Positions 3,339 to 27,249 are shown, counted from the first letter of the stretch. The stretch: DNA of 64,000 bases from Pirellulales bacterium (GCA_963733035.1 CAVTBU010000006.1:448001-512000); one strand, 5' to 3'. The notes: generated by a model from the sequence alone, not told the origin. Made by a program: numbers and translations.

Positions 3339-3368
3339 TTGAAATCGGGCCAGCCCTAGTGCTAGTTT
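3339..3368 (+). promoter_or_regulatory. Putative promoter P1 (TTGAAA-N18-TAGTTT, extended TG)
   Basis: ttgaaatcgggccagc is identical to 11771-11786; TGcTAGTTT lies at 3360-3368, just upstream of the RNA leader. Confidence 0.6.
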
Positions 3369-3384
3369 GCCTTTTGTTGATGAC

Positions 3385-3462
3385 GGGTATCGGCAGAGCC
3401 TGAGCGCGACTCAGGTATCCCAAGGGCCCCTTGCTGGTTTTTTTCCAGCAGGGGCCTTTTTT
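3385..3462 (+). ncRNA. Structured leader/attenuator copy 1 (bulged hairpin, second hairpin, intrinsic terminator)
   Basis: GGGTATC-ggca-GAGCC; CCTGAG-cgcga-CTCAGG; GGCCCC(T)TGCTGG-t7-CCAGCAGGGGCC-TTTTTT, ending just before ATG 3475. Homologous to 12040-12119. Confidence 0.7.
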
Positions 3463-3474
3463 ATTGGGGCAGGC

Positions 3475-4053
3475 ATGATGGCAAGTTCAGATTTGAGATG
3501 CGTCTCCTATCACGATGTGCGCAATCAGATTTGCGACGGCGACCTGCTGTTGTATCGCCGCCGGGGACTGATTTCGATCGCCGGACGCGGCGACCACTCG
3601 CACGCCGCCAAGGCCGCCTGGTGGCGAGACGATCTTTTTTGTCTGGAAGTCCGCGAACTGCACGGAGGACGGGCCGTCACCCTCTCCAGCCAGGTGAGCC
3701 GATTCCCAGGGCACATCGACGTCTACGAAGTGAATCCCGACAACCGCTGGCCGTATTACGATCGCACGGCCGCTTGTGCCGTGATGCGGCGGCTGGCCGG
3801 CTGCCCGTACGGATATGCCGGCGTCGCCGCGGCGGCACTATTGCACTTGCCAGTCGTGCGGCTATTCACCCAGGCCGACGTGCATGATGCCGCGGCATCG
3901 GGCCGCCCTCCGTTTTGCAGCCAGGCATGCGCGATGAGCGACCGCATCGGTGGCGGCGTGGACCCGGTGCCTCACCTGGCGGACCGTCTGACATTGCCGG
4001 CCGATCTGGCACGTAGCCCTTTCTATCGTTACCGCTTTACCCTCACGGCTTGA
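3475..4053 (+). CDS. Permuted papain-like NlpC/P60 enzyme (YaeF/YiiX, C92-like amidase)
   Basis: GDLLL...ISIAGRG.HSHAA (His before Cys), GCPYGY, FCSQ and PADL. Confidence 0.75.
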   Translation: MMASSDLRCVSYHDVRNQICDGDLLLYRRRGLISIAGRGDHSHAAKAAWWRDDLFCLEVRELHGGRAVTLSSQVSRFPGHIDVYEVNPDNRWPYYDRTAACAVMRRLAGCPYGYAGVAAAALLHLPVVRLFTQADVHDAAASGRPPFCSQACAMSDRIGGGVDPVPHLADRLTLPADLARSPFYRYRFTLTA

Positions 4054-4056
4054 TCC

Positions 4057-5313
4057 ATGCGACAAATCTCTTTGCTTTTGATCGCTTTGTGCGCGCTCGC
4101 GTTGGTTGATGGAACGTCGGGACAGGCGCGGGCAGTGGATTGCCCGACAGGCAGTTGTCCACTGCAGCCACCGTCTTCGCCAGCTGAAGTCGCCGTCGAC
4201 GCGCGGCCCATTGCACGGATTGAAAACACAACGCCTGCCGCCCGTGCGTATGGTACGGGAACGCTCGTCGACGTCGACGACGACCGAGGACTCGTCGTAA
4301 CCTGCGCTCATCTGTTTCGCGAAGGGGTGGGGACGGTGCGCGTCAGCTTTCCGAACCGCCCGGCGCAAACCGCCCGCGTGTTAAAGGCCGATCACAATGC
4401 CGACCTGGCAGCGCTCGCGATTCCGCCGTTGGAACTCCGGCCAGTGGAAGTTGCCCAGCAGTTCCCGCAGCGCGGCGACATGCTCGTTTCCTGCGGTTAT
4501 GGCGGTGATGGACGGCTGTGGTCTAACCGTGGGCAGGCGCTCGGGTATGTGACCACCGTCGGCAGTTACGGTCGCGAAACGTTGGAGCTGAGCGGCAGTG
4601 CTCGCTTGGGCGATTCGGGTGGTCCGGTGCTCGACGGCAATGGTTACCTGGTGGCCGTGTTGTTTGGAACTGATGGCCGCGTCGTGGATGCCACGTTTTG
4701 CGGCCGCGTGCGAAAGTTCCTCGCCGGCCTCTCGCCTCGATTCGGGCAAGCTCCCAACAGCGATGCGTCGGCATCGAACGACGAGCCTCGCGAAAAACTG
4801 GAAGACGTGCCACCCCGGATTCTGCGGCCGCAACGTTCCCCGCGCGAACAGAATCCAGCCGACGCCGACCCGCTGGCCAAAGCGGCAGACGCGGTAACCG
4901 ACGCCGCCGCGCCCTGGCTCACGGCGAAACTCACGGGGCTGCTCGTGTCTCTGGGAGTTCCCGGCGGAATCGCGGGCGTCGCCGGCGGAGGGCTCGTGTG
5001 GCTGGTCATGCGGCGCGGCAAGAAGCAACTACGAGCGGAAATCGATCGACTCAAAGCTCGCGCCGAGCAGGTACCACCGAACAGCCCGGCCAGCGATTCG
5101 ACTGGCGTACTTGCGTCGAGCACGGCCGGGAGCGTCGTTGAGCGACATCACAACCGTTATGTGGCGTACGAAGCCGGCTCGGTCGACAAGGCCTGGGCGG
5201 CTGCGCACGCCCGGGTCGGCGAGAAGTATCCCGGCGCCGTCCCGTATTTGAAGATCGTCGAAGGGGTCAAAGACCAACTTCTTTCGGGCATCGAAGAACC
5301 ACTTATTTCCTAA
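4057..5313 (+). CDS. Exported trypsin-like (S1) serine protease with C-terminal hydrophobic anchor
   Basis: Signal peptide, GTGTLV, VVTCAHL (His), DLAAL (Asp), GDSGGP (Ser); hydrophobic GVPGGIAGVAGGGLVWLVMRR segment. Confidence 0.85.
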   Translation: MRQISLLLIALCALALVDGTSGQARAVDCPTGSCPLQPPSSPAEVAVDARPIARIENTTPAARAYGTGTLVDVDDDRGLVVTCAHLFREGVGTVRVSFPNRPAQTARVLKADHNADLAALAIPPLELRPVEVAQQFPQRGDMLVSCGYGGDGRLWSNRGQALGYVTTVGSYGRETLELSGSARLGDSGGPVLDGNGYLVAVLFGTDGRVVDATFCGRVRKFLAGLSPRFGQAPNSDASASNDEPREKLEDVPPRILRPQRSPREQNPADADPLAKAADAVTDAAAPWLTAKLTGLLVSLGVPGGIAGVAGGGLVWLVMRRGKKQLRAEIDRLKARAEQVPPNSPASDSTGVLASSTAGSVVERHHNRYVAYEAGSVDKAWAAAHARVGEKYPGAVPYLKIVEGVKDQLLSGIEEPLIS

Positions 5314-5328
5314 AGGAGAAGTTTACAC

Positions 5329-6189
5329 ATGAGCACCACGCAGCCGATGTTCACCACCGATGAAATCCTTTGGTACGACAACGGGAAATGGGGCGAAGCC
5401 GGATACGCTATCGCCAACCCCAACGGGAAGATATGGACCGCGAATAGCGTAATTTTTCAATTTCACAGCCTGGTTGGCCGCAACATGTTCGAGTTGATGC
5501 ACCGCACCGACGTGCGGTTCTACGGTCCGCCGCACAAACAGTTCTGGTACGACCTGCACCAGCTCATCGTCACCGCCCGCAAGCGGCTGGCCGATCGCCA
5601 GCGGTTGCCGAACGACTCGAACGGGCTGGTCGTCGAACATGCCTCGCCGGCTCCACAGGTATTCATCGCCTGGCCGATTCCGTTCTTCGGCGATCGTGTT
5701 CGCCAGCCCGACATCCGGGAGTACGCCCAGCTCGCGCTGTTGATGCTCTCGGAGATGATGCAGCACAGCGAGAACGAGCTGCCCACGTATATCACCGACA
5801 GTTTCGCGGCCAAGATCGGTCAGTATCTTCGCGAAATTCTGGCGCTCATGGCCACCAAGTACTTCGGCTACACGCGCACCCAGGCCTACGACCCGGCATT
5901 CGCGCTGCAGGACACGGATTTCGCGAACTACGATCCCTCGAAGGTGATGACCAGCGTTGAGATGACCGAGGAGCGTCCGCCAGTGCAGTGGTGGCCGACC
6001 GAATCCGACCTGACGGCGATTCGGGCGATTCCCTACAACGAGGCGATCGTGCTTTCCAAGCGCTGGCCAGCCACGGCTTTGTTGGGTAGCGAAACGTTCG
6101 CGCCTGCGACGTCGAGCGCCGCGGCAACTTCGCCCGGAACCGCGCCGGCCAGCGCCGCCTTCGTCGCTCCGCCCGGACAGGCTCCGTGA
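5329..6189 (+). CDS. Hypothetical protein (286 aa) of the phage-like cluster
   Basis: Strong RBS (aaggag) before the ATG, strongly GC3-biased codons, operonic position; no motif recognised. Confidence 0.8.
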   Translation: MSTTQPMFTTDEILWYDNGKWGEAGYAIANPNGKIWTANSVIFQFHSLVGRNMFELMHRTDVRFYGPPHKQFWYDLHQLIVTARKRLADRQRLPNDSNGLVVEHASPAPQVFIAWPIPFFGDRVRQPDIREYAQLALLMLSEMMQHSENELPTYITDSFAAKIGQYLREILALMATKYFGYTRTQAYDPAFALQDTDFANYDPSKVMTSVEMTEERPPVQWWPTESDLTAIRAIPYNEAIVLSKRWPATALLGSETFAPATSSAAATSPGTAPASAAFVAPPGQAP

Positions 6190-6220
6190 TCATCATTTTC
6201 GTCGAGGAGAATCAGCAGCC

Positions 6221-6472
6221 ATGGCTTTTCCGGAGTGGAGTTTCATTGTGGGGGCGGCGCTTTCGGTTGCCCTCACGGCAGGACCTTGGATGTTCAAAGT
6301 GCATGCCAAGCTGGCAGTGATCGCCAGCAAGATCATCGACCTGTGCGAGAAGCTCGACCGCACGCAAGACGAGCATCGTCGACTGTGGGAAGTCTGCAGT
6401 CGCCACGAGTCGCGGCTCGACACGCACGACGTGCAGCTCTCGCACATCGCCGAGAGGCTGCGCGGCGACTGA
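6221..6472 (+). CDS. Small single-TM plus coiled-coil protein (holin/XhlA-like)
   Basis: gaggag RBS; N-terminal TM helix followed by heptad-like RLDTHDVQLSHI. Confidence 0.55.
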   Translation: MAFPEWSFIVGAALSVALTAGPWMFKVHAKLAVIASKIIDLCEKLDRTQDEHRRLWEVCSRHESRLDTHDVQLSHIAERLRGD

Positions 6473-6505
6473 TATCGCGCCAGGTACCAACCACTGGAGT
6501 TTCTC

Positions 6506-7063
6506 ATGCAAATTCGCGATCGAATTCGAGAGTTTCGTCGAGTGCGCGCCGATACGTTACGTCCGCACCCGCGCAATTGGCGCACGCATCCCCGCGCACA
6601 GCAGGAAGCTGTGCGCGGCGTACTGGCCGAGATCGGCTATGCCGACGCCCTCTTAGCCCGCGAACTGCCGGATGGCTCGCTGCAACTCATCGACGGCCAC
6701 CTGCGCGCAGAACTTACTCCCGACGCGTTGGTGCCGGTGTTGGTGCTGGACGTCAATGAAGACGAGGCGCTGAAGCTGCTGGTTACGGTTGACCCGCTGG
6801 CTGCCCAGGCCGAAACGGATGCTGCCATGCTGCGGGGACTGTTGGACGAAGTGCATACCGACAACCAGGCCGTGGCCGCGCTGCTCGCGTCGCTGGCCGA
6901 AGGAAATCCGCTGGACGGAACACTCGATGATCCCGCGCCCGAAGACCTCATCGTGCCGGCCAGCTTTCAGGTCGTCGTGCAGTGCACAGACGAGGATGAG
7001 CAACGCGAGGTCTACGAACGGATGAGGTCTGAGGGGTTCAAGTGTCGCGTTCTTTCATTGTGA
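6506..7063 (+). CDS. Phage-type ParB/Srx N-terminal domain protein
   Basis: LRPHPRNWRTH, IGYADALL and LIDGHLR motifs. Confidence 0.8.
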   Translation: MQIRDRIREFRRVRADTLRPHPRNWRTHPRAQQEAVRGVLAEIGYADALLARELPDGSLQLIDGHLRAELTPDALVPVLVLDVNEDEALKLLVTVDPLAAQAETDAAMLRGLLDEVHTDNQAVAALLASLAEGNPLDGTLDDPAPEDLIVPASFQVVVQCTDEDEQREVYERMRSEGFKCRVLSL

Positions 7064-7070: not shown

Positions 7071-8178
7071 ATGCCTGTAGTCGAAGCAACCGTTAGTTGT
7101 CCGCTGTACGATTCGTTTCGCGTACAGCAGGTGGCGGGCATGTTCGACGTGCCGCTCGAAGAGCGACCGGCGCAGTCGTTTGCCGTGGACGTGCCCGATG
7201 TGGACGAAGACTGGCAAATCGGTTTGATTGTCGGTCCCTCGGGAAGCGGCAAAACGACGATCGCCCGGCGCGCGCTTGGCAAGTACCTGTGCGATGAACC
7301 CCAATGGCCGACGAACCGGGCCGTCGTCGACTGCTTCGGGCGCTCACGGCGAAGCAAATCACCGGGCTATTGACGGCGGTTGGATTCGGCTCTCCGCCGG
7401 CCTGGGTGCGGCCCTACCGGGTACTCAGCCGCGGAGAACAATTCCGCTGCGACCTGGCACGCGCACTCGGCGTTGCCATGGAGCAAGGCGCTCGCAAACC
7501 GCAGCGCTTCCGCCGCTGGTCGTCTTCGATGAATTCACTAGCGTGGTCGATCGCAATGTCGCGCAAATCGGTTCGGCCGCGATTGCGAAGTCGATTCGCG
7601 GAGGCCGCCTTCCCGGCCGTTTCGTGGCGGTCACCTGTCACTACGACGTCGCCAACTGGCTCGAGCCCGACTGGGTGGTCGACATGGCAACGCGCACCTG
7701 CTCGCGGAGGCGTCTTCGGCGACCGCCCATTGAACTTGAGCTGCACCGCTGCCATCGGCACCTCTGGACGTTGTTTGCGCCGCATCACTATTTGAGCGGA
7801 GCTCTCAGTCCGGGGGCGCATTGCTATGCGGCCTGGTGGCAGGGGCGGCCAGTCTCGTTTTGCGCCACGCTGCCCGTCATCGGCCGCAGAAATCATTGGA
7901 GAATCTCGCGCATCGTGACGCTGCCCGACTATCAGGGCGTGGGCATCGGCATGCAGGTGGCCGAGGCGGTGTGCCAGCTCTATCGCGCGGCTGGCTGCCG
8001 CATGAACGTGACGGCCAGCCACCCGGCCATGATCGCCCATTGCACGCGCTCGCCGCGATGGCGCACCGTGCGCGTGCTGCGCTCGGGTGCCGGCGAAACG
8101 CGACATTTTGTGCGCAGCTACCGTAGTTCGGCAGGGCGGAGCGTGGTGTCCTTCGAGTATCTGGGAAATCGACCGTGA
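7071..8178 (+). CDS. ABC-type ATPase fused to GNAT acetyltransferase (two -1 frameshifts, ~7340 and ~7500)
   Basis: GPSGSGKT in the 7071 ORF, LSRGEQFRCDLAR in the 7304 ORF, then FDEFTSVVDR, HHYL and SRIVTLPDYQGVGIG in the 7228 ORF. Confidence 0.82.
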
Positions 8179-8648
8179 GCGAGCGCAACGAACCGGGCCG
8201 GCCGCCGGTCCTCGACGACGTCAAGAAGGGCATGATTTGCGCCGTGCTGGCGATGGGAGGCACGCGTGTCACGGCCGCGGCCTACGTCGGCTGCCATCCC
8301 GACACGATTCGCAAGACCGAGCTGCGCGACGAGGAATTCGCCCAGAACCTCGAACAGGCAGAGTCAAAGCACGAGGTGTCGCAACTTGCCTATATCAGCA
8401 GCGCCGGCAAGGAAAGCCGACACTGGCGAGCCGCGGCCTGGGCGCTGGAGCGACGCTATCCCGGCCGCTATGGCCAACGACGCCCGGAGTTATTTACGCT
8501 CGACCAGGTATCTCACGTGGTGACCCAATTCGCCAGCGTGATTCTCGATGAAGTGACCGACAGCGTGCAGCGCGAACGTATCCTGGCGCGGCTGACCGTC
8601 TTGTCGGCCAGCCTGCAATCCACGGCCCTCGCGGGAGACAATTCATGA
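8175..8648 (+). CDS. Terminase small subunit-like HTH protein
   Basis: GRPPVLD N-terminus, HTH, WRAAAWALERRYP; overlaps the TerL start. Confidence 0.65.
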   Translation: MSERNEPGRPPVLDDVKKGMICAVLAMGGTRVTAAAYVGCHPDTIRKTELRDEEFAQNLEQAESKHEVSQLAYISSAGKESRHWRAAAWALERRYPGRYGQRRPELFTLDQVSHVVTQFASVILDEVTDSVQRERILARLTVLSASLQSTALAGDNS

Positions 8649-10255
8649 AACTCACCGCCACTTGGAATCGCGAAGGCATTCGCACCGATGCCTGGGCCGA
8701 ACTTGCCTTGCATCTCAGGGCTTGCGTGGCTCGCCGCGTGCGCTGTGAGGGGCGCGACAACCTGCCGCTGCTCGACTGGGGCCGCCGCTACCTGCCGCAC
8801 TATTTCCAAAAGCCCCCCTCGGGCATGCACCAATGGCTGGCCGAACGGCTGGATACGATGACCACCGAGCGCGGCACGAAGCTCAATGCCATTGGGCCGC
8901 GCGGTGGTGCCAAAAGCACGATCGGCACGTTGACCTACGCCCTCCGTGCGGCCGTCGAAGGCTGGGAGCCCTACATTTGGATCGTCTCCGATACCAAACA
9001 GCAAGCGCGCGGACATCTGGAGAACCTCAAGCTCGAACTGACGACCAATAAACTGCTCGCCGACGACTATCCCGCGTCCACCGGCAAGGGTTCCACCTGG
9101 CGCGTCAACGTGGTTCGCCTGAACAACGGGGTCACGATCGAAGCCTTGGGCACGGGCCAGCGTCTGCGCGGAAAACGAAGCGGTGCCAATCGTCCGACGC
9201 TTATCGTGTGCGATGACTTGCAGAATGACGATCACATGCGCTCGGCTATGGCACGCGAGAACTCGTTGCGGTGGTTCGAAGGCGCGTTGCTCAAGTCTGG
9301 CACGCCGCAGACGAACGTCGTCAACCTGGCCACGGCACTCCACCGCGATGCCCTGGCGCTCAAGCTCGATCGCACGCCCGGTTGGACATCGCAAGTGTTC
9401 CAGGCAATCCGCCGCTGGCCCGACAACATGAGCCTGTGGCATGAGTGGGAGCGGATCTACTGCAATCTGGAAGGTGGAGATTCGCCAGCCGCCGCGCGTG
9501 CGTTCTACGAGCGCAACCGCACGGCCATGGACGAGGGGGCCGAATTGTTGTGGCCCGAACTCGAAGACCTCTACACGCTGATGCGGATGCGGGTGGAAGG
9601 TGGACGTACCGCGTTCGAGCGCGAGAAGCAGGGTTCACCACTCAGTCCCGACGCCTGCGAGTGGCCGGCCGACTACTTCGACGAGCACGTGTGGTTCGAC
9701 CGGTGGCCCAGCGACTTGAGGCTCAAAGTCATGGCGCTCGACCCGAGCAAGGGGCGCGACTCCCGGCGGGGCGACTACTCGGCCTTCGTGCTGCTGGGCG
9801 TGGACCGCGACGGGGTGCTCTACGTCGACGCGGACCTCGCGCGACGCCCGACGCCCGAGATGGTGGCCACCGGCGTCGAACTCTGCCGGGTATTTCGTCC
9901 GGACGCGTTTGGCGTCGAGACTAATCAGTTCCAGGAATTGTTGTCCGACGAGTTCGCCGCGGAGTTTCAGCGACAGGAAATGGTCGACGTGCATCCCTGG
10001 GGCATCGACAACCGGGTGAACAAGCCCGTGCGGATCCGGCGGCTTGGCCCCTTTCTCTCGAGTCGCAGGCTGCGATTCAAGAGCGACTCACCGGGTACGC
10101 GACTGCTGCTCGAACAGCTGCAGGAATTTCCGGCCGCCGATCATGACGACGGACCCGACGCGCTGGAGATGGCAATCCGACTGGCGGGAGAACTCCTGGG
10201 CGGTACGGCAGTGGGCGACAGCCTGGGCGATCGGATACCCGTGGGGGCGGGGTAG
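8645..10255 (+). CDS. terL: Terminase large subunit
   Basis: Walker A PRGGAKST, LRG..GANRP, Walker B IVCDD; RNase H-like LDPS..DYSA..HDDGPDALE; intact 536 aa. Confidence 0.92.
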   Translation: MKLTATWNREGIRTDAWAELALHLRACVARRVRCEGRDNLPLLDWGRRYLPHYFQKPPSGMHQWLAERLDTMTTERGTKLNAIGPRGGAKSTIGTLTYALRAAVEGWEPYIWIVSDTKQQARGHLENLKLELTTNKLLADDYPASTGKGSTWRVNVVRLNNGVTIEALGTGQRLRGKRSGANRPTLIVCDDLQNDDHMRSAMARENSLRWFEGALLKSGTPQTNVVNLATALHRDALALKLDRTPGWTSQVFQAIRRWPDNMSLWHEWERIYCNLEGGDSPAAARAFYERNRTAMDEGAELLWPELEDLYTLMRMRVEGGRTAFEREKQGSPLSPDACEWPADYFDEHVWFDRWPSDLRLKVMALDPSKGRDSRRGDYSAFVLLGVDRDGVLYVDADLARRPTPEMVATGVELCRVFRPDAFGVETNQFQELLSDEFAAEFQRQEMVDVHPWGIDNRVNKPVRIRRLGPFLSSRRLRFKSDSPGTRLLLEQLQEFPAADHDDGPDALEMAIRLAGELLGGTAVGDSLGDRIPVGAG

Positions 10256-10333: not shown

Positions 10334-11811
10334 GTGATGAGTAGCAACGGCGTAGTGGAACGTGACGTATCCGAGCGGTTGAACCGTCGATTGGCCGAGG
10401 CCTGGCAAAGTCTGTGGGATAACTTTGTCGATCCGCGAGAGTCGCTCTCTGATGATGGCGGCGATTGGATCGAGCTGGGAGCCGGTGGCGGAGCGACCAC
10501 GGCATCGTTGCCCTTCGGCAATGAGCAGGAGCTTCGTGAGATCCGCACGCAGTGCCGGGCTCTTGCGGTCGGAAACGAGTTCGCGATCAACGGACACGAG
10601 AACCGCATCAGCTTTCTGGTAGGCGCGGGACATACGTATCGCGCTGCTGTGAAGAAGGGGCGGGCGGCTTCCGACGAGTTGGCGAGCCGCGTGCAGGAGG
10701 TGTTGGATCGGTTCATTGCCGAAAACCGGTGGCACCGCCGCCAGCAGGAGATTGTCCGCCGCTACGATCGCGACGGAGAAGTGTTTCTACGTCTGTTCGC
10801 CACGGACGATGGCCAGACGCGTGTTCGTTTCGTCGAGCCTGGGCAGGTGGCCACGCCCAAGGAACTGGTAGGCGACGCGTCTGCGAGCTTCGGCATTCAA
10901 ACTGAGCCCGATGACGTGGAGACGCCCCTGTACTACTACATCGACGGCCGGCCGGTCGACGCTGCCGACGTGCAGCATCGCAAGGCAAACGCCGACGCGA
11001 ACGTCAAACGCGGGTTGCCCCTGTTCTATCCCGTGCGAAAGAACTTGCGACGCGCCGAGAAGCTGCTGCGCAACATGAGCGTCGTGGCAGAGATTCAGTC
11101 GGCGATCGCGTTGGTCAGAAAACATCGCGGCGCAACGCGTGCCAGCGTGCAGCAGTTCGCTTCGTCACAGGCCGACGTCAGCGTCACGTCGCCGGCGACC
11201 GGCCAGACGACCAACTATCGCCGGTTCGGACCGGGCACCATTCTCGACAGCCACGGTGGAATCGAATACGACTTTCCGACCGCGGGGCTCGACGCCGGCA
11301 ACTTCGTGACGATCTTGCAGGCCGAGCTCGCGCGATTGCCAGCCGACTGGTGATGCCTGAGTTCATGCTTACGTCGGATGCTTCGAACTCCAACTATGCT
11401 TCGACGATGGTGGCCGAGGGGCCGGCGATGCGGATGTTTGCCCGCTCGCAGGCCGAACTGGTGCACGACGACTTGTGCGTGATGCACCGCGTGCTGGAGA
11501 ACGCCGTGATCGCCGGTCTGTTGCCGCGTGAAGCGCTGACGCAAATCGAAATTCAGGCCGCACCGCCAACGCTGGCCGTTCGCGACCCGCTAGAAGAAGC
11601 GCAGGCGTTTCGCATCGAGTTCGAATCCGGCATTCTCTCGCCGCAAACTTGGAGCCAGCGGCGAGGCCTGGACTACGACCAGGAACAGACCAACTGGCGG
11701 CAAGCAAGGGACCGCGCCGCGCATGCTCCCGCGCCGCGAAAAAAAATTCCGCGACCGGCGAAAATGGAAATTGAAATCGGGCCAGCACTCCGGGTAACTT
11801 CGGAATCATGA
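10334..11811 (+). CDS. Portal protein (-1 frameshift ~11330; true C-terminus uncertain)
   Basis: Follows TerL; RDGEVFLR, RGLP, then DASNSNYAS and DPLEEA..GILSPQT in the next frame, typical of portal proteins. Confidence 0.85.
11771..11800 (+). promoter_or_regulatory. Putative promoter P2 (TTGAAA-N18-TAACTT) with upstream A-tracts; probably leaderless
   Basis: 16-bp identity with P1; the -10 ends at 11800 and the ATG is at 11808; no Shine-Dalgarno. Confidence 0.6.
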
Positions 11812-12039: not shown

Positions 12040-12119
12040 GGGTATCTCGACGAGCCTGCCAGGGGCGGGTTTCATTGCGGGCCCATTTGCCGGTGCATCC
12101 GGCAGATGGGCCTTTTTTT
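12040..12119 (+). ncRNA. Structured leader/attenuator copy 2
   Basis: GGGTATC-tcgac-GAGCC; CCTGCC-agg-GGCGGG; GGCCCATTTGCCGG-tgcat-CCGGCAGATGGGCC-T7, upstream of ATG 12142. Confidence 0.7.
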
Positions 12120-12141
12120 GTCTGACAAGGAAACCAAAACG

Positions 12142-13091: not shown

Positions 13092-13150
13092 CGCAATTGT
13101 CCAATCAAAATTCCACCTACTCACACGTTTACTCAACGGAGAATCCACAA

Positions 13151-14860: not shown

Positions 14861-14919
14861 GGCGGGCACCGGGGTGCGGCGGGCGGCCAAACACAAGCCG
14901 CCCGCGACCCCGGTTCGTC
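14861..14919 (+). terminator. Long GC hairpin after the capsid gene (terminator or mRNA stabiliser)
   Basis: accggggt..gcgggcggc-caaacacaa-gccgcccgc..accccggt; no clear U-tract. Confidence 0.55.
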
Positions 14920-18358: not shown

Positions 18359-19087
18359 ATGTATCTCAAATATGGAACGTACCAGCATCCGCCGGGCGAA
18401 GCGTCGGTGGTGATTTCCAAACAGGGGCTGTTCAGCGACGCGGGCCTGCCGCAGGGCGTCCGCGAGCGATGGGACATACAAGGGCGCTTGCAAGCAGCGG
18501 ATCAAACGGCGCTCTCGGCCGCGATCGATGCCCTCACTTCGGCCTACGCTATACAGGGGCAGGACCTCGGCTTCTACTTCGACGACGGACAGCCCTCGAG
18601 CCATCAGATCACCGGCTCTTCGACCAACGGCGGAGTGCGTGTTGTCATGCCGCCGAGCTTTCCGCAAGGGAAGGGAGCCGAGTACTCGACTTTTCGCAAC
18701 TACGCGATCTCGCTGGAAGCCGAACTGCTGGACAGCGGTGCCACGCTCATCCAGTGGAACGAGCGGCTCAACTTCTCGGGAGGCGGCCCCCAGTTTGCCT
18801 TCCTGCAACCGATTAACGGGTTGCCAATCAAACAATTGCTCCGGCAGGCCACTCCGTATCACGCTGCGCAAAGCGGCGAAGCCGTCGGCTATCAGGCCTA
18901 TCCCACACCAGCGCTGCCACTGTGGCCCGACGCCGAACACGTGAACCAACGCGAGGTTCACTACGAGCTTCCCAAACGTATGGGACCACCCGGTAGCGCC
19001 ACCTACACACACTATCGGGTCACCTGGGCCTATCGCTTCGAGTCGGCCACGCCGCTGGTCGGAGCGCCGACCGGCTGGCCGTCGTGA
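18359..19087 (+). CDS. Hypothetical tail/baseplate-region protein
   Basis: Intact 242-aa beta-rich ORF in the operon after the tail tube gene. Confidence 0.65.
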   Translation: MYLKYGTYQHPPGEASVVISKQGLFSDAGLPQGVRERWDIQGRLQAADQTALSAAIDALTSAYAIQGQDLGFYFDDGQPSSHQITGSSTNGGVRVVMPPSFPQGKGAEYSTFRNYAISLEAELLDSGATLIQWNERLNFSGGGPQFAFLQPINGLPIKQLLRQATPYHAAQSGEAVGYQAYPTPALPLWPDAEHVNQREVHYELPKRMGPPGSATYTHYRVTWAYRFESATPLVGAPTGWPS

Positions 19088-19126: not shown

Positions 19127-20959
19127 ATGACCGTACCGCAAGGATTGGCTGCATTTCCGGGCATCGATCAACTGATCTCGGCATCAATTACGCTGAGCCA
19201 CGGCATCTCACCCAGCACTGCCAGACTAACGATGGCCCCGCAGGCCACGCCGCCCGCCGAGCTCGGCACGCTGCAATTTGTGTTGGGAACAGCGGTCGTC
19301 GAATTCCCGGAATGCAAAGTCGATCACGGCAGCTACCAGCGGAGCGACAGCGGCGAGTTCTGGCAAGTGTCGCTGCTCGACCGCCGCTGGAAATGGCGGT
19401 TTGGCCAAGTCTCAGGTCGATTCAACGTGTGGCGAGACAACGCCACACTTCAGAACGGCGATCCAGCCGGCTCATAGGTTCCGGCTTGGTGACCGACACC
19501 GAGCGCACACCGCAGGAATTGGCGGAGTTATATCTCAATGCCATGGGCGAAGTGGACTACGACATTTCCGAGTTGCCCGACGATACTCGACCCCCGGTCG
19601 ATCACGACTATGACAATCCGGCTGAGGCCCTGGCCGCATTGTGCGAAAGCCTGGGTTGCCGGATCGTGCTGCAACTCGACAACACGGTCAAACTAGTTCG
19701 CAGTGGCGCGGGAGCCGGCCTGCCTGCCGAATTCCTTTTGGAAGACAGCCTGACCATCGACCTGCCGGAAAAGCCGGACAAGATTGCAGTCGTCTGCGGG
19801 CCCAGCTTGTATCAGGTGGATTTTCCGCTGGAAGCAGTGGGACTCGACCGCGACACGACGTCCGGGGGCGACCCGACCGATACGATCAAGCCGATCGACG
19901 AGTTGAGCTACAAGCCGTCGGGCGGTTGGGGACAGATCGACTTGCCCTTGTTTGCTGATCTGTCGGCCGCCGACGACGAGGAGGATGTAAGCGGCTTGCG
20001 ACTCCCTGGCCACCAAGAGCGTCTTTCGCTACTACCGTATCAAACTTCCGATCAAGGTGCCCGGCTACGACGGTGATTCCGACGGATTGGTGACGAAACG
20101 CGAACAGCTCCTGCCGCTCTTCGAAGAGCAGGTTGTTTCGGCGGTCGAAAACGACGACAGCGTGCCGCTGCCCGCGGCCGTGTTCGGAGTGTGGTATCCA
20201 GGCCTCGACGATCAAACGAATACCGCCGAGCAACTTGCGCCGCTCGGAAATTCACCACCCGCGGCAGGTCCCGGCGGGACGTACAAGTCGCCGTTCTACA
20301 ATCGCGGCTTCACGCTAGACGCTGCCCGCGGTCTTGTGATTTTCAACGAGCCCGTCTACAAGAACGCCACGCCCAATGCGGCCAAAGTTACTCCGGAGCC
20401 TGCGCAGCTGGTGCTACGCACAAAGTGCCAGGTGCGCGACGCCGAGACGCTGACATTGTCACGTCACATTCGCGAGCGATCGACGGACTCGTCGCTCGGC
20501 ACGCAAACACAGTTCATCCGCCGCGATGAATTGACCGTAACCCACGTGCCAACGTATTCGGCCGCGACGTACGCCGAGGTACCAACGGCAGGTGCCGATC
20601 CGCGAGTCGTCGACGACGTGGAATCCACCGTTGACGACGTGAATGCCGCCTGCGACTACTATATCGACGCCGCGCTTGAGGAATATCAGCAGCCCGAACC
20701 GCGACAAGTCCGGACCGCGGGCATTTACCCCATCGATCTCGACGGCGCGATTGCGCAGGTCACCTATCAGATTGGCCCCTCCGGCGCGACGACTACCGTC
20801 GCCCGGGGGAGCGAACCATCGAGTTTCGCGGCCAGTCACGGCGAACGACGGCGCGCCGAGTTGTCTCGCGAGGCCAACAGGGAAGTTCGCAGGCGGCGCT
20901 CCGGCACCACCGGCCGTACCACACGTCGCGAGGCCGCTGCACGGAGGCAGGCACGATGA
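19127..20959 (+). CDS. Large tail/baseplate hub-like protein (frameshifts ~19470 and ~20000)
   Basis: Three consecutive ORFs (19127, 19312, 20057) join; LLDRRWKW and NPAEALAALCESLGCRIVL resemble hub-like segments. Confidence 0.55.
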
Positions 20960-23480
20960 ATCACGACAATCCACACTCGCTCGCCCGGCCGCTGCCGTTT
21001 CGCAACGTCTCGGGCGAAACCGTTCCAGCCTTTGCTGTCATGGCGATCCAGGGCTTGTCGACGGAAAACGGCATGGCCGTTTTGCAGTGCGGCCAGCCCG
21101 ACACGACTTTTCGCCGGCACTACGCGGTAAATGGCATCCAAGACGTGCCGGCGGGCCGACGTGGTAGTTGCTTTCGCGCCGGCGACGTACGCGTAAGCTA
21201 CGGATCGGGCACGCCCGAGCCGGGCGAGGGATGGGGACCCAAGCCCGGCAGTTGGGCATGGCCCAGGGATTTCCGGGTAGCACAATTCAAGGAATTGTCG
21301 ACGCGTCGCACAATATCGCGCGGATCGATTGTGAACCGATCGATCGCGCGTGGTGAAAACGACGGCAACCGTAGCGACCGATTCGAGTACCACGGACTAT
21401 CGCATTCATGCCGGGCCGGCGGGAAGCGAAATCGACGCCGGCTTTACCAACGTTCCCGCGGCCCACAATCGTAGCGGCCAGGTAATCGCCAGCGGCCAAT
21501 GGGCCTACCTTGTGTGGATCAACAATGGCTGGGAGATCCAGCCTATGCGACAGGCCGCGCTGTGTGCGGTGCCACCGTGCGGCGAGGGCATTCCCGCGAG
21601 CGGCGAGCAGCCCGGAGCGAATGTTTGTTGCCTGTTTACGATCGCCGCCGGCACGCTTGTTCCGGTGCTCGATGAGGAAGGGGCTCAGCTCAGGGCAACG
21701 GTGTACAACGTTCGCGAGATGGCAATTCCCCCGCTGGAGCCGCCCAATGAGCGGTATTTGCTGGTGTATGCGGATCCCAGCGGACGTTGGGTGTGCGAAG
21801 TGCCCGACACCAGTTCCGCCCACGAGCGCGTCGACCGCGACGACCAGTACCACAACGACGACCACGCTCGCGCCTTGCGCGGGAACCTGCAAATGGGTCT
21901 GGAATGATACGGATTCGGTGTGGGAGCTCGACGACAACAACTGTGCGACGGGCAGCTGGGTTACGTCGCCAGAACCGACCACGACCACGCCCGCTCCCGA
22001 CTGTCTTTGCCCCACGACAACGACGACCAGCACGACCGGCGATCCGAGCACCACGACGACGACCAGCACGACGACCACGACGCCATCGCCGTGCGATTGC
22101 GTGTATCCCGGCTACTGCGGCAGCACGGCCGGCGAGTGCACGTACACCTCCTGCGCTTCGGGCAACCAGAGCCCCTCAGTCGAGTGCACGACGACCACGA
22201 CCACCACGACGACCAGCTGCGACTGCAACACCACGACCACGGCGGATCCTGGGCCAGGCTGTAGCGATTGCAGCTGGTTCGATCACCCCGTCTATGGTTG
22301 GCAGAAGACGAGCGACGGGTGCCTGGGCGATTGCAGTTGCTCGCCGCCCGGCGGCGGCAGCGGCGATTGCAGCGCTGCGAGCACGCCTTGCGTCCCCGAT
22401 CCCATCATACCGCTGCCGCCGTGCGTGGGGTCGTGCGAGTGGCTGTGTATCCCCGAGCAGGGCTGGTGGCTCCGCAGCAACGGCTGTCCCGGTTCGTCGT
22501 CGACGGGCCCTTGCTTTTGCATTCCGCCCAGCGTTCCCTGCGACGTGTGCGGAGCGCCGCTCTCCACGGGGTGTCAGAGTCCGACCACGACCACACAGCC
22601 GCCGGGCAGTTGTCCGCAGTGCTATTCGACCACGACCAGTACCACCACGACGACGACCGCGGATCCCTGCGGCACGGGCTGCTTGTGGGACGGCAGCACG
22701 AGTGGCGACTGGACACTGTCGGCGAACCATTGCAGCCCGGGATGCGACTGCCTGCCTCCCTCATATGATGCCACCGACGATTGCGAGACGGCTCACACCC
22801 AGTGCTATCCGGGCCTGACCACGACGACGACCACCACAACCACCACGACCACGACGAGCACCACCACGACAACCGCGGAGCCCTGGTGGTGCGTGACCGC
22901 CGGCGGATGCGACGAGGCGAGCTGCCTGCAGGGGCAGGAATCGGACTTCTCCAGCATCACGATCTGTAGCGGTCCGCATGCCGACGAGGCGACGTGCATC
23001 GCCGATCCCTGCCCGCAGCCCACCACGACGACCACGACGACGACTTCCACTACCACGACGCCTGCTCCCTACTGGTGTTGTGACGATGGGCTGGGCGGCG
23101 TATGCGTTCAAGAATCCGGCGGGCCATGCAGCGGCTACAGCGGGACGCTCAGCGGGCCTTACGCGGATTCCACAGCCTGCGCCGCGGCCTGTGACACCAC
23201 CACAACGAGCACAACCACCACGACCACCTGCGATCCGCTTAACGATTGCACCGCCGGTCCCAGCCAGTGCGCGGTCGCCTGTAACAACTTCGTCTACGAG
23301 GTGACCGATCTGTGCATCGCCAACGGCAATGGCTGCGTGTGCGATTTGCCGCCGGACGCGATCGCCGTCCTGGGACAACCGTGCACGGAGGCTTATGGAA
23401 TTTACTCATGCTGCAATCAGTGCCCGGGCGCAAGCGTCTCGGTTTGCACGAATACCACCACCACGACTCCCGCCCCCTGA
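20956..23480 (+). CDS. Putative fibre/appendage protein with N-terminal anchor and Cys-rich modules separated by poly-Thr tracts (frameshifts ~21255, ~21345, ~21815)
   Basis: ORFs 20956, 21168, 21350 and 21510 join into ~840 aa; the C-terminal part alternates CxxxCxW/CxCxxP modules with Thr runs. Confidence 0.62.
21840..23470 (+). repeat. Coding low-complexity poly-Thr tracts (mixed ACC/ACG/ACA codons)
   Basis: For example 22818-22874 encodes T13-S-T5; further tracts near 22015-22085, 22190, 22630, 23020, 23200 and 23455. Confidence 0.9.
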
Positions 23481-23495: not shown

Positions 23496-25457
23496 ATGAC
23501 GTATCCGGCAAAAACAGCACCGGCGTCCCCGCCGAAAACAGCACCGACGCCGAAGCTAACCATCGGCCTGCCGACGTACGACGATTTCGACGGCTGCTGG
23601 TTCACCCTGCAAAGCCTGCGACTGCATCACGACATGCGCGAGGTCGAATTGCTGCTGGTCGACAACAAGCCCGACTCGCCCGGCTCGGCCGATCTGAAGC
23701 AAAAGGTCGAGGGCTGGTTCCGCCCCGGGACCGCCGGCACGCGGTACATTGCCATGCCGGGCGATGGCGGACCGGCCTTGGCGAAGGACCGCGTGTTTCG
23801 CGAGGCGGCCGGCGAGATTGTGCTCTGTCTCGACTCGCACGTGCTGCTGGCTCCCGGCGCGATCACGAAGCTGCTCCAGTGGTACGACGATCACCCGGGT
23901 AGCCACGATCTGGTGCAAGGCCCGCTCTTGCTCGATCACCTGGCCGGCGTGCACACGCATTTCATCGACACCTGGCGCGGCGAAATGTGGGGCATCTGGG
24001 GCTCGGCCTGGGAAGTCTGTCCGGGAGGCGACCGGGTGAGCGTCGTCGAGGCTGGCGGGCGCGTGCAGTATTTGGCGCTGGACATGGGGAACGTGCCACT
24101 CTCCTCCAGCGCGGTTTGCCAGCGCGAACTGCCCGCCGTGGCTTGGGCCGGTCATGAACAACATCTGCTGGCTGCCGGCCTGCGGCCGCTGGGGCTGGCC
24201 GACAACGACGAATTTGAGATCCCCGGCATGGGCTGCGGCTTGATCAGTTGCCGGCGGCAGGCCTGGCCCGGTTTCAACGAGCACTTCCGTGGCTTCGGCG
24301 GTGAGGAGATGTACCTGCATGAGAAGTTCCGGCAGCGCGGCGACCGCTGCCTCTGCCTGGGGTTCCTCAAATGGGTGCACAAGTTCGCGCGGCCTGGCGG
24401 CGTCAAGTATCCGCTCACGCGCTGGAACAAGGTCCGCAACTATGTGCTGGGACATCAGGAATTGGGCCTGCCGCTCGAGCGCGCGCACGAGCATTTCGTG
24501 GGTGGCAAATTAATGAGCGAGCGGCAGTGGGAGTATTTGCTGGCCGATCCAATCGGCCACACGAGCGAGCCGGCCGCGCAAGCGCCCGGGACCATCGACG
24601 AGCTCTACGAGCAGGTGCAGGCCACGAAGTGGAGTTTGGACCAGCACATGCCGGCGCTTCGGGCGCTCGCCGAGCAATGCGAGCACGTGACCGAGTTTAG
24701 CCACACCCGCGAGTCCTTGGTGGCGCTGGCGGCCGGCAGTCCCGCGGCGATGATCTCGTACAACGTCGATCGACAGGCACCCGCCGCGGCGGCGCTCTGT
24801 CCCTACGTGGAATTGCAAACCGTCGATTCGCCCGAGGTGCCCGCGATCGACGAGACCGACCTGTTGTTCCTCGACACCAAACATACCCGCGCCCGCCTGG
24901 CCGAGGAGCTGGAAAGATTCGCCCTCCAGGTGCGGCGCTACATCGTGCTCCATGACACGGCCCTGCACGGCAGCCGCGGTGAAGACGGGGGCGCGGGCCT
25001 GGTGCCCGCGATTCGCGCCTTCATCGAAGCGCATCCCGCCTGGTTCGTCGCCAGCCACACGCAGACGCAATACGGCCTGACGGTACTGGGCTGCCGGGAG
25101 CAAGACCGGCCGGCCCAGCCGATTCGGCTCTGGCCGCCCGACTTCGGACCCGGTACGGAACTGAAAGCGATGCTGGCCAGTCTGGGCATCGAGCCGGCTC
25201 CCTCCTGCGATTGCAACGGCAAGAGCGTGCAGATGGACGTCTGGGGCGTGGCCGGCTGCCGCGCGAATCGCGAGCAGATCATCACTTGGATGCGCGAGGG
25301 GCAGTCGCGCTGGGGCTGGAAGGACAAACTGGCCGCCGCCGCGGCCGCCGTAAAAAGCGGTCTGGCATTCAAGCTCAATCCGCTCGATCCGTTCCCCAGC
25401 TTGATTGATGAAGCGATCCGCCGGGCGGAGGAGCGCGAAAGGCAGGCGGCCGCATGA
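23496..25457 (+). CDS. GT2 glycosyltransferase fused to class I methyltransferase-like domain and a Cys-containing C-terminal domain
   Basis: LTIGLPTYDD, LLVDN, CLDSH, GFGGEE (GT-A fold); DLLFLDTKH..L..EL..YIVLHDT (Methyltransf_24-like); GPGTELK..SCDC tail. Confidence 0.8.
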   Translation: MTYPAKTAPASPPKTAPTPKLTIGLPTYDDFDGCWFTLQSLRLHHDMREVELLLVDNKPDSPGSADLKQKVEGWFRPGTAGTRYIAMPGDGGPALAKDRVFREAAGEIVLCLDSHVLLAPGAITKLLQWYDDHPGSHDLVQGPLLLDHLAGVHTHFIDTWRGEMWGIWGSAWEVCPGGDRVSVVEAGGRVQYLALDMGNVPLSSSAVCQRELPAVAWAGHEQHLLAAGLRPLGLADNDEFEIPGMGCGLISCRRQAWPGFNEHFRGFGGEEMYLHEKFRQRGDRCLCLGFLKWVHKFARPGGVKYPLTRWNKVRNYVLGHQELGLPLERAHEHFVGGKLMSERQWEYLLADPIGHTSEPAAQAPGTIDELYEQVQATKWSLDQHMPALRALAEQCEHVTEFSHTRESLVALAAGSPAAMISYNVDRQAPAAAALCPYVELQTVDSPEVPAIDETDLLFLDTKHTRARLAEELERFALQVRRYIVLHDTALHGSRGEDGGAGLVPAIRAFIEAHPAWFVASHTQTQYGLTVLGCREQDRPAQPIRLWPPDFGPGTELKAMLASLGIEPAPSCDCNGKSVQMDVWGVAGCRANREQIITWMREGQSRWGWKDKLAAAAAAVKSGLAFKLNPLDPFPSLIDEAIRRAEERERQAAA

Positions 25458-26338
25458 CGACATACTCGTCGCAAAAAACACTGGTTTCATGTCTCTGCCC
25501 GACGTTCAACCGCTACCCGCGGCTGGCGTGGCTGCTCGAGGAAGCGGTCGAGTGCTTCTTGCGCCAGGACCACGCCGACAAGGAGCTGCTGATCCTGAAC
25601 GACACGCCCGGACAAAAGCTCGTATTGGATCATCCGCAAGTGCGGGTGTTCAACGCCCAGCGGCGGCTGCCGGACTTGTCGGCGAAGATCCAGTACCTCG
25701 TCGATCGGGCCGCCGGCGATGTCTTTTGCCGCTGGGATGACGATGATTTGTCATTCCCTTGGCGGTTGAGCTATTCGCTCGCTAGGCTCGACGATCGCGT
25801 CGAGTGGCGGCCTGAGAATTTCTGGTTCGCCAATGGCGATCAGCCGTGGAAGGAAGATCATCATCCGGGCAATACGCACGTGATGGCCATCTGGCGGCGC
25901 GCGGCGCTCGACTTGATCGGCGGCAAGTACCCGGCTGGGTTTAGCGGCGGCGAGGACATTTCCTTCAACCGGCGGTTGGCCGAGGCCGGGTTGCCGCCGC
26001 GTGGCGACCTGCTGCCGACCGACGAGATGTTCTATGTCTATCGCTGGGGCACCGGTAGCCGGCACCTTTCGGGCGTCAGCGATAGCAGCGCGAGGCCGCA
26101 CCAGGCCCATTGGAACGCCCTGGGACAACTGCCGATCGAGCCCGGTACGTTTCGCATCAAGCCCCGGATGCGCAATGGTGGCGCATGGTACCAAGTGCCA
26201 CTAAGTCCTACGGGCAAATCTTGCTTGGATGCCGCCGCGTCTCGTCCGGCAGCGTCAGATTTCGGTAATGGCAATCTTTTGATAGAGCAAATCGACCACC
26301 CCCATCAGGAATCCTGCTTCGGCACTCTCCAGCAGTAA
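25454..26338 (+). CDS. GT2 glycosyltransferase (3' end uncertain; overlaps the convergent XRE gene)
   Basis: VSCLCPTFNR, FLRQD..KELLILND, WDDDD, GED. Confidence 0.85.
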   Translation: MTTYSSQKTLVSCLCPTFNRYPRLAWLLEEAVECFLRQDHADKELLILNDTPGQKLVLDHPQVRVFNAQRRLPDLSAKIQYLVDRAAGDVFCRWDDDDLSFPWRLSYSLARLDDRVEWRPENFWFANGDQPWKEDHHPGNTHVMAIWRRAALDLIGGKYPAGFSGGEDISFNRRLAEAGLPPRGDLLPTDEMFYVYRWGTGSRHLSGVSDSSARPHQAHWNALGQLPIEPGTFRIKPRMRNGGAWYQVPLSPTGKSCLDAAASRPAASDFGNGNLLIEQIDHPHQESCFGTLQQ

Positions 26339-26749
26339 GGCAACCTTGCGGTGCACGTTTCGTTTCTCATTGATGGCCAAGGCAATTTCGGCAGCACCTT
26401 CGGCGGACAAAGCGCCGCCGGTGCCAAAGTTGCTATAGAGCTCTTCAAAGTCCGCGGCAGACCAGTCGCTGAACAACTCTGGGCGGCGTTCGATCGCCTC
26501 CTTCACGGCTGGGTTCGTGCGGCGGTCGAACAATTGATGTGTCGGCGACAACGGTGGTTGAAACAACTCATCGGTAGATACGCCCAAACCAGCGGCCAAC
26601 CGATGCAGCGTGCGAGCGTGTGGCTTGCCGTTGCCAGCGAGCGCGGCTTTGACCGTGCGATCGTGCAATCCCGAGGCCGCTACGAGCTCACGCAACGTCA
26701 TTCCATTGCGAGCCATCAAGCGACGAACATTGTGGGCAAACGGCAGCAT
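26255..26749 (-). CDS. XRE-family HTH transcriptional regulator
   Basis: NVRRLMARNGMTLRELVAASGL..TV....G..KP...TLHRLAAGLGVSTDELF. Confidence 0.88.
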   Translation of the reverse strand: MLPFAHNVRRLMARNGMTLRELVAASGLHDRTVKAALAGNGKPHARTLHRLAAGLGVSTDELFQPPLSPTHQLFDRRTNPAVKEAIERRPELFSDWSAADFEELYSNFGTGGALSAEGAAEIALAINEKRNVHRKVALLLESAEAGFLMGVVDLLYQKIAITEI

Positions 26750-26783
26750 GGCAGGTTCACTCGCGCGAGTGTTTCCAATCTGC

Positions 26784-26812
26784 TTGACACGATAGTGTAT
26801 ATATGTATACTA
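26784..26812 (+). promoter_or_regulatory. sigma70-like promoter (TTGACA-N16-TATACT) overlapped by a 20-bp imperfect palindrome
   Basis: TTGACA at 26784-26789, TATACT at 26806-26811; TAGTGTATATATGTATACTA at 26793-26812, between divergent genes. Confidence 0.7.
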
Positions 26813-26889
26813 ATCGCCAGTAACACGTCAACAGAAACCAAGTGTTGGATGGAAATGGGTTCCGGTGCGATTCTCAGGGAGACCGTGTC

Positions 26890-27249
26890 ATGAATGGGCT
26901 GGAGTTGCCTGGTGATGCATGCTCGTCGGACGTCGTCGGTGGTTGCGAGGCGATCGGCACATCGCGGCTTTTTCGCCTTTGGATTGCGTCCTACGACAAC
27001 TGGCGACCGGCACGTTGGAATGACACTCCGCCGGCCGCGACGGCAGTCGAGTTGATCGAGGACTCGAACTTTTCCGAGGGGGAAGCACGCTTGTTTCTCG
27101 AAGGATTTAACGCGCAAATGCTAACGTGTAACAAGCAGCTGTGGGCCGTTGCCGTGCCGATTGTGCTGCGCTGTGAAGGCGATTCACGGCCTGGCGAACT
27201 GATTCGAGGCTACGCGTTTGCTGACGCAAAGTCGAACCTGGAAATCTGA
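26890..27249 (+). CDS. Hypothetical protein divergent from the XRE gene
   Basis: ggag RBS before ATG 26890; plausible globular sequence (FLEGFNAQML..WAVAVP). Confidence 0.6.
   Translation: MNGLELPGDACSSDVVGGCEAIGTSRLFRLWIASYDNWRPARWNDTPPAATAVELIEDSNFSEGEARLFLEGFNAQMLTCNKQLWAVAVPIVLRCEGDSRPGELIRGYAFADAKSNLEI

Follow-up and report, generated by a model that had tools for sequence, protein, structure and literature searches.

A vertically inherited, phage-derived particle gene cluster in the Pirellulales that probably represents a gene transfer agent-like locus

Background

PBSX-type defective prophages of Bacillus are conserved particle loci that do not propagate and are maintained by their host; they have a contractile tail, and their particles kill rather than transfer. 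The properties by which the gene transfer agent (GTA) RcGTA is recognised are in part common background in the field and in part set out in two papers (PMC9662315, PMC10883770). RcGTA is encoded by a chromosomal head-tail cluster that lacks replication and integration genes and possibly occupies more than one locus; it descends vertically within a taxon of high rank, with purifying selection acting on its genes. In this study, we report the gene content, distribution, descent, chromosomal position and selective constraint of a phage-derived cluster of packaging, head, neck and tail genes in a 64,000-nucleotide stretch of DNA from a Pirellulales bacterium (GCA_963733035.1, CAVTBU010000006.1:448001-512000; the whole stretch is called the window), for which an earlier note, made from the sequence alone, had proposed a GTA-type role.

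The three GTA groups evaluated in a classification paper as having an established genetic basis are those of Rhodobacterales, Bartonella and Brachyspira (PMC9662315), and a Namib preprint that names both GTAs and planctomycetes concerns alphaproteobacterial GTAs. Full-text searches, which did not cover supplements, gave no earlier account of any GTA, or of any conserved cluster of phage origin, from Planctomycetota, and the terms 'prophage' and 'GTA' are absent from the main text of a 2025 review of that phylum.

We conclude that the cluster is probably a vertically inherited, selected, phage-derived particle locus whose most likely use is the production of a GTA-like particle that packages cellular DNA. 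It resembles a GTA in every respect that sequence can test, which supports this conclusion; what the particle would package and what role it would play we infer. The proposal of the earlier note is thus supported in part, by the distribution, the fixed locus, the tree of the large terminase subunit (TerL) and the selection on the genes, whereas the copy in this genome reads as heavily frameshifted, through decay or mis-assembly, and the tail is not shared across the order.

Methods

The window corresponds to positions 448001-512000 of contig 6 in a 6.65-Mb genome (G000) of 10 contigs and 92% completeness. Pfam and PHROG scans were performed on 39 open reading frames (ORFs) at 1-32 kb of the window, with intact orthologues in the relative G016 as a check; an NCBIfam scan added only matches to portal_lambda, to a DNRLRE domain and, weakly, to terminases. 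Profiles of TerL and of the major capsid protein (MCP) were searched against an order sample of 401 Pirellulales genomes that are at least 90% complete. An IQ-TREE quick search under LG+G4 gave the TerL tree (75 rows), rows with fewer than 430 query residues or with stops having been excluded beforehand. Ratios of non-synonymous to synonymous substitution rates (dN/dS) were calculated by NG86 for ten genome pairs. Frameshifts were counted by aligning proteins of the relative G001 to the window with a frameshift-aware method. Cassettes of genus g2 were read from records L017/L018 (G004) and L021/L022 (G018).

Results

A particle gene cluster without replication or integration genes

At about 3.4-27.2 kb of the window nearly all plausible genes lie on the plus strand, and this one-strand block (3367-27249) holds phage-type packaging, head, neck and tail genes. 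The head-tail module described in the earlier note was recovered by Pfam or PHROG for the small terminase subunit (TerS), TerL, portal, decoration protein, MCP and tail tube, whereas the protease had no Pfam match and remains a lead from a look-alike search. As the same note had stated, no integrase, recombinase, primase, helicase or polymerase was found among the 39 scanned ORFs, nor was a repressor, and no tRNA lies within the window. Ordinary genes adjoin the cluster on both sides, again as described: MoCF, Exo_endo_phos and HD genes on the left, and a PolB-exo2-like exonuclease, a TfoX_N protein and an M20 peptidase on the right. The cluster has the structural and packaging genes expected of a GTA, with no replication, integration or lysogeny module. 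Its GC content, said to match the host, is close but slightly raised (about 0.63 against 0.603 for the genome).

Distribution across the order

The host belongs to the Pirellulales (Planctomycetota), and the named public records with close TerL relatives agree: these are metagenome-assembled genomes of Pirellulales, Thermoguttaceae and Planctomycetaceae, together with Bythopirellula, including the isolate B. polymerisocia Pla144 (330 of 374 candidate stretches confirmed). The label 'planctomycete' given to the locus beforehand was thus right. TerL was present in 49 of 61 relatives, mostly as one full-length copy, with an identity of 77% within the genus that falls to 56-66% across the order. 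The search for TerL and MCP across Planctomycetota that had been advised showed both to be common in the Pirellulales: the TerL profile matched 226 of the 401 order genomes (about 55%), usually singly and at full length, and the MCP profile matched 216, with the same family pattern and with strong matches that were nearly all single and stop-free. By family, TerL was found in 61/71 genomes of f12, 67/79 of f19, 9/9 of f20, 12/13 of f22, 9/9 of f25, 4/4 of f28 and 9/15 of f1. In several families 85-100% of the genomes have TerL and MCP. Over the rest of the phylum they are scattered, and in a phylum-wide sample only 20 of 401 genomes gave a match at E 1e-20 or better.

What is shared order-wide is a core of ParB-like, P-loop/GNAT, TerS, TerL, portal, protease, decoration and MCP genes, among which MCP is the best conserved (63-86% identity to G016). 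A tube-type tail is common to f1, f22 and f25, and five genomes of f12, f19 and f28 have other genes after MCP (Laminin_G_3, Tail_completion_gp17, phrog_22694). Distal tail genes differ between lineages. The G016 tail gene t420 is missing from the window, G001, G003 and G024.

Vertical descent at a fixed chromosomal position

Comparison of the TerL tree with taxonomy, another check proposed earlier, showed that the tree follows taxonomic families: family labels required 24 changes against a minimum of 21, the mean for shuffled labels was 54.4, and none of 200 shuffles was as low. Families f12, f28, f131, f4, f8 and f16 each formed a single clade. Identity to G000 in TerL and in RpoB was correlated (Spearman 0.75, n=31 genomes, some values coming from partial matches and genomes without either full match being left out).

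Synteny and fixed position were also borne out. Both flanks are common to the window and to G016, G024 and G030, which represent three other genera, and synteny with G016 extends to the window end. The right flank, consisting of two small genes, the PolB-exonuclease-like gene on the opposite strand and often the M20 gene, adjoins the end of the cluster in 11 fetched loci, which represent 7 families, and the PolB-exonuclease-like neighbour is 69-79% identical in those loci. Ahead of the cluster, f1 has the 5' peptidase genes, as do G043, G050 and three Bythopirellula records. Distribution, tree, RpoB correlation and synteny are those of long vertical inheritance at a stable locus, as in a GTA.

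In the cultured B. polymerisocia Pla144 (record L103) the genes from the 5' end through the portal are intact. In the same record the protease gene lies at 2-628 on the minus strand, upstream of the 5' genes, with 4494-13043 on the plus strand. The second half of the head module therefore runs opposite to the half with the terminase and portal genes.

Split loci and purifying selection

Directly after the portal, G039, G472, G558 and G033 have ordinary host genes (Kdp, UPRTase, Ku and PutA among them). Each of these four genomes, like G047, keeps one intact MCP (71-77% identical) at a distance, either 45 kb away or on a different contig. The cluster is thus split in some families with both halves retained intact, an arrangement that a phage could not survive.

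The dN/dS values, for which a ratio below 1 had been predicted, were well below it for head and tail genes alike (0.03-0.41), indicating purifying selection as in GTAs. In the pair G002/G003, where dS is unsaturated (0.18-0.28), they were 0.03 for TerS, 0.065 for TerL and 0.11 for the portal; the pair G001/G003 gave 0.056-0.41 over 18 genes including tail genes, and eight further pairs gave similar values, with 0.03 for MCP in G544/G538. The exceptions come from short or doubtful alignments: a 40-codon piece (0.76), u129 (2.9) and one pair with undefined dS. All cluster genes are in a single frame in G001, G003, G029, G016, G470, G531, G538 and G544, eight genomes assembled in short contigs. 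None of the signs that the earlier note had named as contrary to a GTA, namely sporadic clusters, variable loci, linkage to integrase genes and relaxed selection, was seen.

Genes of the cluster

The features of the window copy and its right neighbour are as follows.

3367..4053, plus strand: crot, a possible papain-like cysteine peptidase and candidate lysis enzyme (phrog_1128, E 1e-6; its profile weakly matches PDB 3kw0 'Cysteine peptidase', E 0.023; no Pfam match)
4057..5313, plus strand: trypsin-like serine peptidase with a signal-peptide-like N-terminus (PF13365, E 7.7e-18; residues 1-19 hydrophobic)
5329..6189, plus strand: u298, a conserved protein without a family (85% identity to G016; dN/dS 0.056 in G001/G003)
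6209..6466, plus strand: small protein with one N-terminal hydrophobic segment (75.6% identity to a G016 ORF in the same frame)
6482..7063, plus strand: ParB-like nuclease-domain protein (phrog_498, 620, 723; upstream of TerS order-wide)
7071..8178, plus strand: P-loop NTPase/GNAT acetyltransferase fusion (phrog_11143; G016 orthologue E 7e-98; frameshifts at about 7341 and 7496)
8175..8648, plus strand: TerS, small terminase subunit (phrog_4102, E 6e-15; intact)
8645..10255, plus strand: TerL, large terminase subunit (phrog_38, E 1e-76; PF17289; intact)
10334..11811, plus strand: lambda-family portal (PF05136, phrog_21; frameshift at about 11327; a single ORF in G001, G003 and G016)
12099..13091, plus strand: prohead protease/scaffold candidate, between portal and decoration protein (phrog_29592; frameshifts at about 12138 and 12475, stop at 12123)
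13097..13627, plus strand: head decoration (cement) protein (PF09956, E 4e-9; phrog_122; intact)
13689..14850, plus strand: MCP of the Phage_capsid_4 family (PF25209; frameshifted)
14871..15488, plus strand: h200, neck or head-completion candidate (orthologue of a G016 200-aa ORF; no family match)
15521..16084, plus strand: h168, neck candidate (G016 orthology; frameshift at about 15747)
16081..17394, plus strand: DNRLRE/CBM96-domain protein, beta-helix-like and carbohydrate-binding (PF24517; G016 orthologue NF033679, E 2.5e-19; intact)
17414..18330, plus strand: tail tube protein (PF18906, phrog_290; PDB 8ed0 'Tail Tube Protein gp93', E 3.5e-12; frameshifts at about 17576, 18166 and 18279)
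18359..19087, plus strand: t242, conserved tail protein (orthologues in f1, f22 and f25; no PDB or family match; intact)
19127..20884, plus strand: t604, large tail protein and possible baseplate hub (frameshifts at about 19475 and 20002)
20881..21541, plus strand: part of a t705 homologue, distal tail gene (frameshifted)
21510..23480, plus strand: Thr/Cys-rich repeat protein, lineage-specific (no homologue at the matching place in G016 or G024)
23496..26338, plus strand: two family-2 glycosyltransferases (GT2), a lineage-specific insert (PF00535; not kept at the matching place in G016 and G024)
26351..27249, plus strand: u129 and u184, two small conserved genes (end block after tail or head genes in f1, f4, f9, f12, f19, f22, f25, f28 and f131 loci)
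27299..28117, minus strand: PolB-exonuclease-like 3'-5' exonuclease, conserved right neighbour (PF10108, E 1.9e-57)

The first three genes (3367-6189) had been called a lysis trio, which is plausible only, as they comprise a weak papain-like match, a trypsin-like peptidase and a gene without a family. In f1 genomes, G043, G050 and the named Bythopirellula records, too, crot stands upstream of the cluster, a homologue of the trypsin-like peptidase also lies upstream of TerS in a paralogous element of G001 (G001b), and u298 had no PDB, Pfam or NCBIfam match. From its position the small protein at 6209..6466 may be holin- or spanin-like, and the position of these upstream peptidase and small-membrane-protein genes just before the terminase genes would fit a lysis cassette. 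The genes put forward as the cluster's 'own regulators' are those of the ParB-like protein and the P-loop/GNAT fusion, and no regulator was identified.

Profile searches of solved-structure sequences gave nothing usable for the protease candidate. In a language-model look-alike search, which provides a lead only, it lay nearest to prohead proteases S77/S78/Mu-like_Pro (score 0.94), and its alignment shows a conserved N-terminal domain and a variable helix-rich C-terminus, as in protease-scaffold fusions. The same kind of profile search gave nothing usable for t604, t242, t420 and u298. The nearest protein-atlas clusters of t604 are viral hypothetical proteins, and a weak structural likeness to gpD/VgrG-type hubs (TM 0.34-0.47) is likewise a lead only. 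Four further conserved genes, t604 among them, come after the tube. Of the parts of a complete tailed particle, the head genes and the tube can be named in the window's family, the remaining tail genes, kept in f1, f22 and f25, are without names, and no tape measure was recognised.

The extent first proposed (3339..27249) includes two segments, 21510-23480 and 23496-26338, that are lineage-specific and absent at the matching place in G016 and G024; the Thr/Cys-rich repeat protein is probably outside the conserved system. This block (21510-26338) separates the tail genes from the conserved end genes. One GT2 is 653 amino acids (aa) long with a possible methyltransferase-like part, the Thr/Cys-rich protein has long poly-Thr linkers, and short-read contigs of run X1 contain repeat-length variants inside 22036-22839. 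Beside the PolB-exonuclease-like gene, in the window as in G016, lies a gene for a TfoX N-terminal-domain protein (28116-28571 in the window). TfoX-family proteins regulate competence in other bacteria; to link this neighbour with DNA uptake would be pure speculation.

State of the copy in this genome

As assembled, nine cluster genes are broken, which the earlier note had missed. Frameshifts and in-frame stops, respectively, number 2 and 0 in P-loop/GNAT, 1 and 0 in the portal, 2 and 1 in the protease, 11 and 0 in MCP, 0 and 2 in h200, 1 and 0 in h168, 3 and 0 in the tube, 2 and 0 in t604 and 2 and 0 in t705; the two stops of h200 fall in the aligned N-terminal part, which may precede the true start. 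No frameshift or stop was seen in TerS, TerL, the decoration protein, CBM96, t242 or the 5' genes. The idea that the shifts lie in homopolymers found no support, and a plot of GC content at third codon positions was too noisy for frame calls.

Either a recent loss of function in this lineage or a locally poor assembly consensus could account for this state. That these are true pseudogenes, inactivated recently as this lineage lost the system, is a serious possibility to which we give somewhat less than even weight. The cluster has 1.66 frameshifts per kb (about 24 in 14.5 kb), about 12 times the genome background, against 0 in the roughly 49 kb of window flanks compared with G016; MCP combines its 11 shifts with 20 lineage-specific residue changes, against 9 in G001; and no second intact copy was found in the genome. 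The background itself is not clean, however, since 11 of 62 host ORFs orthologous to G016 are split between frames (91 kb aligned, about 0.14 per kb), and so is rpoB (contig 5, 2072557-2076212), an essential gene for which all 40 full-length matches in relatives are one open frame. Moreover, lineage-specific changes are not in excess in the remaining frameshifted genes (portal 27 against 50 in G001, tube 15 against 27, P-loop/GNAT 18 against 37), and the shifts are uneven, with 11 in MCP and none in TerL and CBM96, where neutral decay predicts an even spread.

The assembly contains indel errors, and its estimated completeness may be too low on their account; split host ORFs occur, for example, in contig 6 at 408749-433248. 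Among public reads, pieces of the window were found only in the soil metagenome run X1 (share 0.06), with no RNA run among the matches; they are contigs of 150-250 bases that are identical or near-identical to the window, none of them shown to span a frameshift site. A metagenome scan for same-species contigs gave nothing above 78% TerL identity, and the nearest IMG/VR contigs were at 81%.

Phage relatives and related elements

TerL is 33-34% identical over 95% of its length to TerL of D3112/Mu-like Pseudomonas siphoviruses (e.g. phage H70), whose records were among 50,697 from phages in which tblastn found nothing for MCP. TerL relatives at a greater distance (43-54%) occur on 27-67-kb IMG/VR contigs that look like true phages. 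Two annotated viral contigs of 48-50 kb carry Mu F-like proteins, and one 48-kb contig (L257) also carries ThyX, a C5 methylase and, upstream of TerL, the P-loop/GNAT gene known from the cluster.

A second, related element is present in G001 (G001:C25, L183) and G003 (G003:C1, L182). Its TerL, 50-55% identical, branches outside the order-wide clade, and its genes encode a Mu F-like protein, a 657-aa portal and a 1257-aa Laminin_G_3 protein. In G000 only a TerL fragment of this element was found (contig 4, 34355-35299).

In genus g2 (G004 14240-20840 and G018 13600-25000, oriented) the gap between portal and protease contains 2-4 repeats at a spacing of about 3 kb, each with a copy of the C-terminal half of the portal that is 59-78% identical to the G016 portal. 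In both genomes the portal copy runs into a different C-terminal part, which in G004 includes a Peptidase_M91 'effector protein' domain; ankyrin-repeat and leucine-rich repeat (LRR) proteins lie between the copies, and G022 has one extra portal fragment. In these error-prone assemblies the repeats look like an array of alternative portal ends with cargo.

Discussion

The genes suggest how the particle might be made. TerS and TerL would pump DNA through the lambda-type portal into a capsid built from MCP with the protease/scaffold and stabilised by the decoration protein; in the window's family and some others, neck proteins, a non-contractile tail tube and distal tail proteins would complete the particle, which the upstream peptidase/small-membrane-protein cassette may release. 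The particle would most likely package cellular DNA, and would do so by a headful mechanism to judge from the nearest isolated relatives of its TerL, which are Mu/D3112-like phages; its assembly, its content and any transfer we infer. Having no replication, integration or lysogeny genes, and being split in some genomes, the locus cannot propagate as a virus, and purifying selection on such a locus implies that the host must benefit.

Several observations weigh against a GTA-like locus inherited with the order. Two large families are nearly without the element: MCP was found in 0/79 genomes of f15 and, weakly, in 11/79 of f24, and TerL in only 4/79 and 21/79, all weak. The tail is not order-wide, as the tube profile had no match in 5/5 genomes of f12, f19 and f28, and no tape-measure protein was recognised anywhere in the loci annotated. 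In the quick TerL tree, whose backbone is poorly resolved, f1, f19, f22 and f25 are not single clades, so that some transfer between lineages is possible, and kin are not independent, which means that the correlation and the tallies overstate the case. The window copy itself carries about 24 frameshifts in eight genes and 3 in-frame stops, two of them in a ninth gene, and may thus be dead in this genome.

If particles are made, they could serve something other than gene transfer: a PBSX-like killer or defective particle, or protein delivery, kept for competition or cell interaction. Sequence cannot separate a killer or delivery role from that of a GTA, the variation of distal tail genes between lineages would suit one, and the portal-effector cassettes of genus g2, with their Peptidase_M91, ankyrin and LRR parts, hint at protein cargo. 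These cassettes were seen in one genus only, however, in error-prone assemblies, and the strong constraint on the terminase pair and the portal argues that DNA packaging matters; we therefore hold a non-transfer particle to be rather unlikely. A functionless remnant of an ordinary defective prophage, widespread by chance, would likewise have no integrase or replication genes, as is often the case in remnants, and the window copy does read as broken. Such a remnant would hardly leave intact single-frame genes across families at saturated dS with dN/dS of 0.03-0.4, as a single copy at a conserved locus in 7 families and with both halves kept where the cluster is split, and we find this explanation highly improbable.

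An active temperate phage family that uses one integration site and co-speciates with its hosts is barely credible. IMG/VR does list many cluster contigs as viral (240 of 337 candidate stretches confirmed), and G001 and G003 have the distinct related element as a second copy. Against this, no integrase, repressor or replication module lies in or beside the window cluster, where host genes adjoin and no tRNA was found (attachment-site (att) repeats were not searched for); the TerL tree follows host families; and the cluster is broken into distant loci in several genomes, four of them by the portal-host gene junctions described above, which is not survivable for a phage. A GTA-like particle locus thus remains the probable explanation.

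More tentatively, the Pirellulales may possess an ancient, independently domesticated GTA, a new viriform lineage and the first in Planctomycetota, with a Mu-like headful head and a lambda-type portal, kept in most of the order throughout its history while its tail and cargo ends were remodelled in each lineage and portal-effector cassettes perhaps came to load proteins; we regard this fuller picture as possible but doubtful in its entirety. Only a handful of independently domesticated GTAs are known. A candidate found throughout an order of Planctomycetota would extend GTAs to a further phylum and another phage ancestry, and would suggest a way, open to testing, in which genes are exchanged among bacteria that are genetically hard to manipulate. 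Cultured carriers such as B. polymerisocia Pla144 make experiments feasible. Split but retained loci and portal-fused cassettes are unusual and could show how such an element evolves after domestication.

Among known systems, the tail tube is related to gp93 (PDB 8ed0; profile match over residues 32-202, both proteins belonging to Pfam Phage_tube_2), a protein of P74-26, a Thermus phage with a long tail. The relationship is confined to the tube, next to which the Pirellulales cluster had no recognisable tape-measure gene. The heads of Mu/D3112-like transposable siphoviruses are linked to the cluster by TerL, by the Mu-like_Pro look-alike protease and by the MuF proteins of its distant relatives, whereas the cluster itself has no transposase, MuF or regulatory genes and an MCP without a tblastn match in the phage records searched. 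PBSX, compared by description and not by homology, is another conserved non-propagating particle locus, but in a different phylum. The closest parallel is RcGTA (Rhodogtaviriformidae, Alphaproteobacteria), with which the Pirellulales cluster shares the properties listed at the outset and a GC content slightly above the genome mean. It differs in its phylum and, as far as tested, in its phage ancestry, with its PF05136 portal, its Phage_capsid_4 MCP, its decoration protein, its ParB-like and P-loop/GNAT pair and a TerL nearest to Mu/D3112-like phages, in a comparison made by description of genes rather than by direct alignment; the function of the Pirellulales cluster is a prediction. Since PF05136, PF25209, PF09956 and PF18906 are presumably not among the families of RcGTA, the two clusters likely arose independently.

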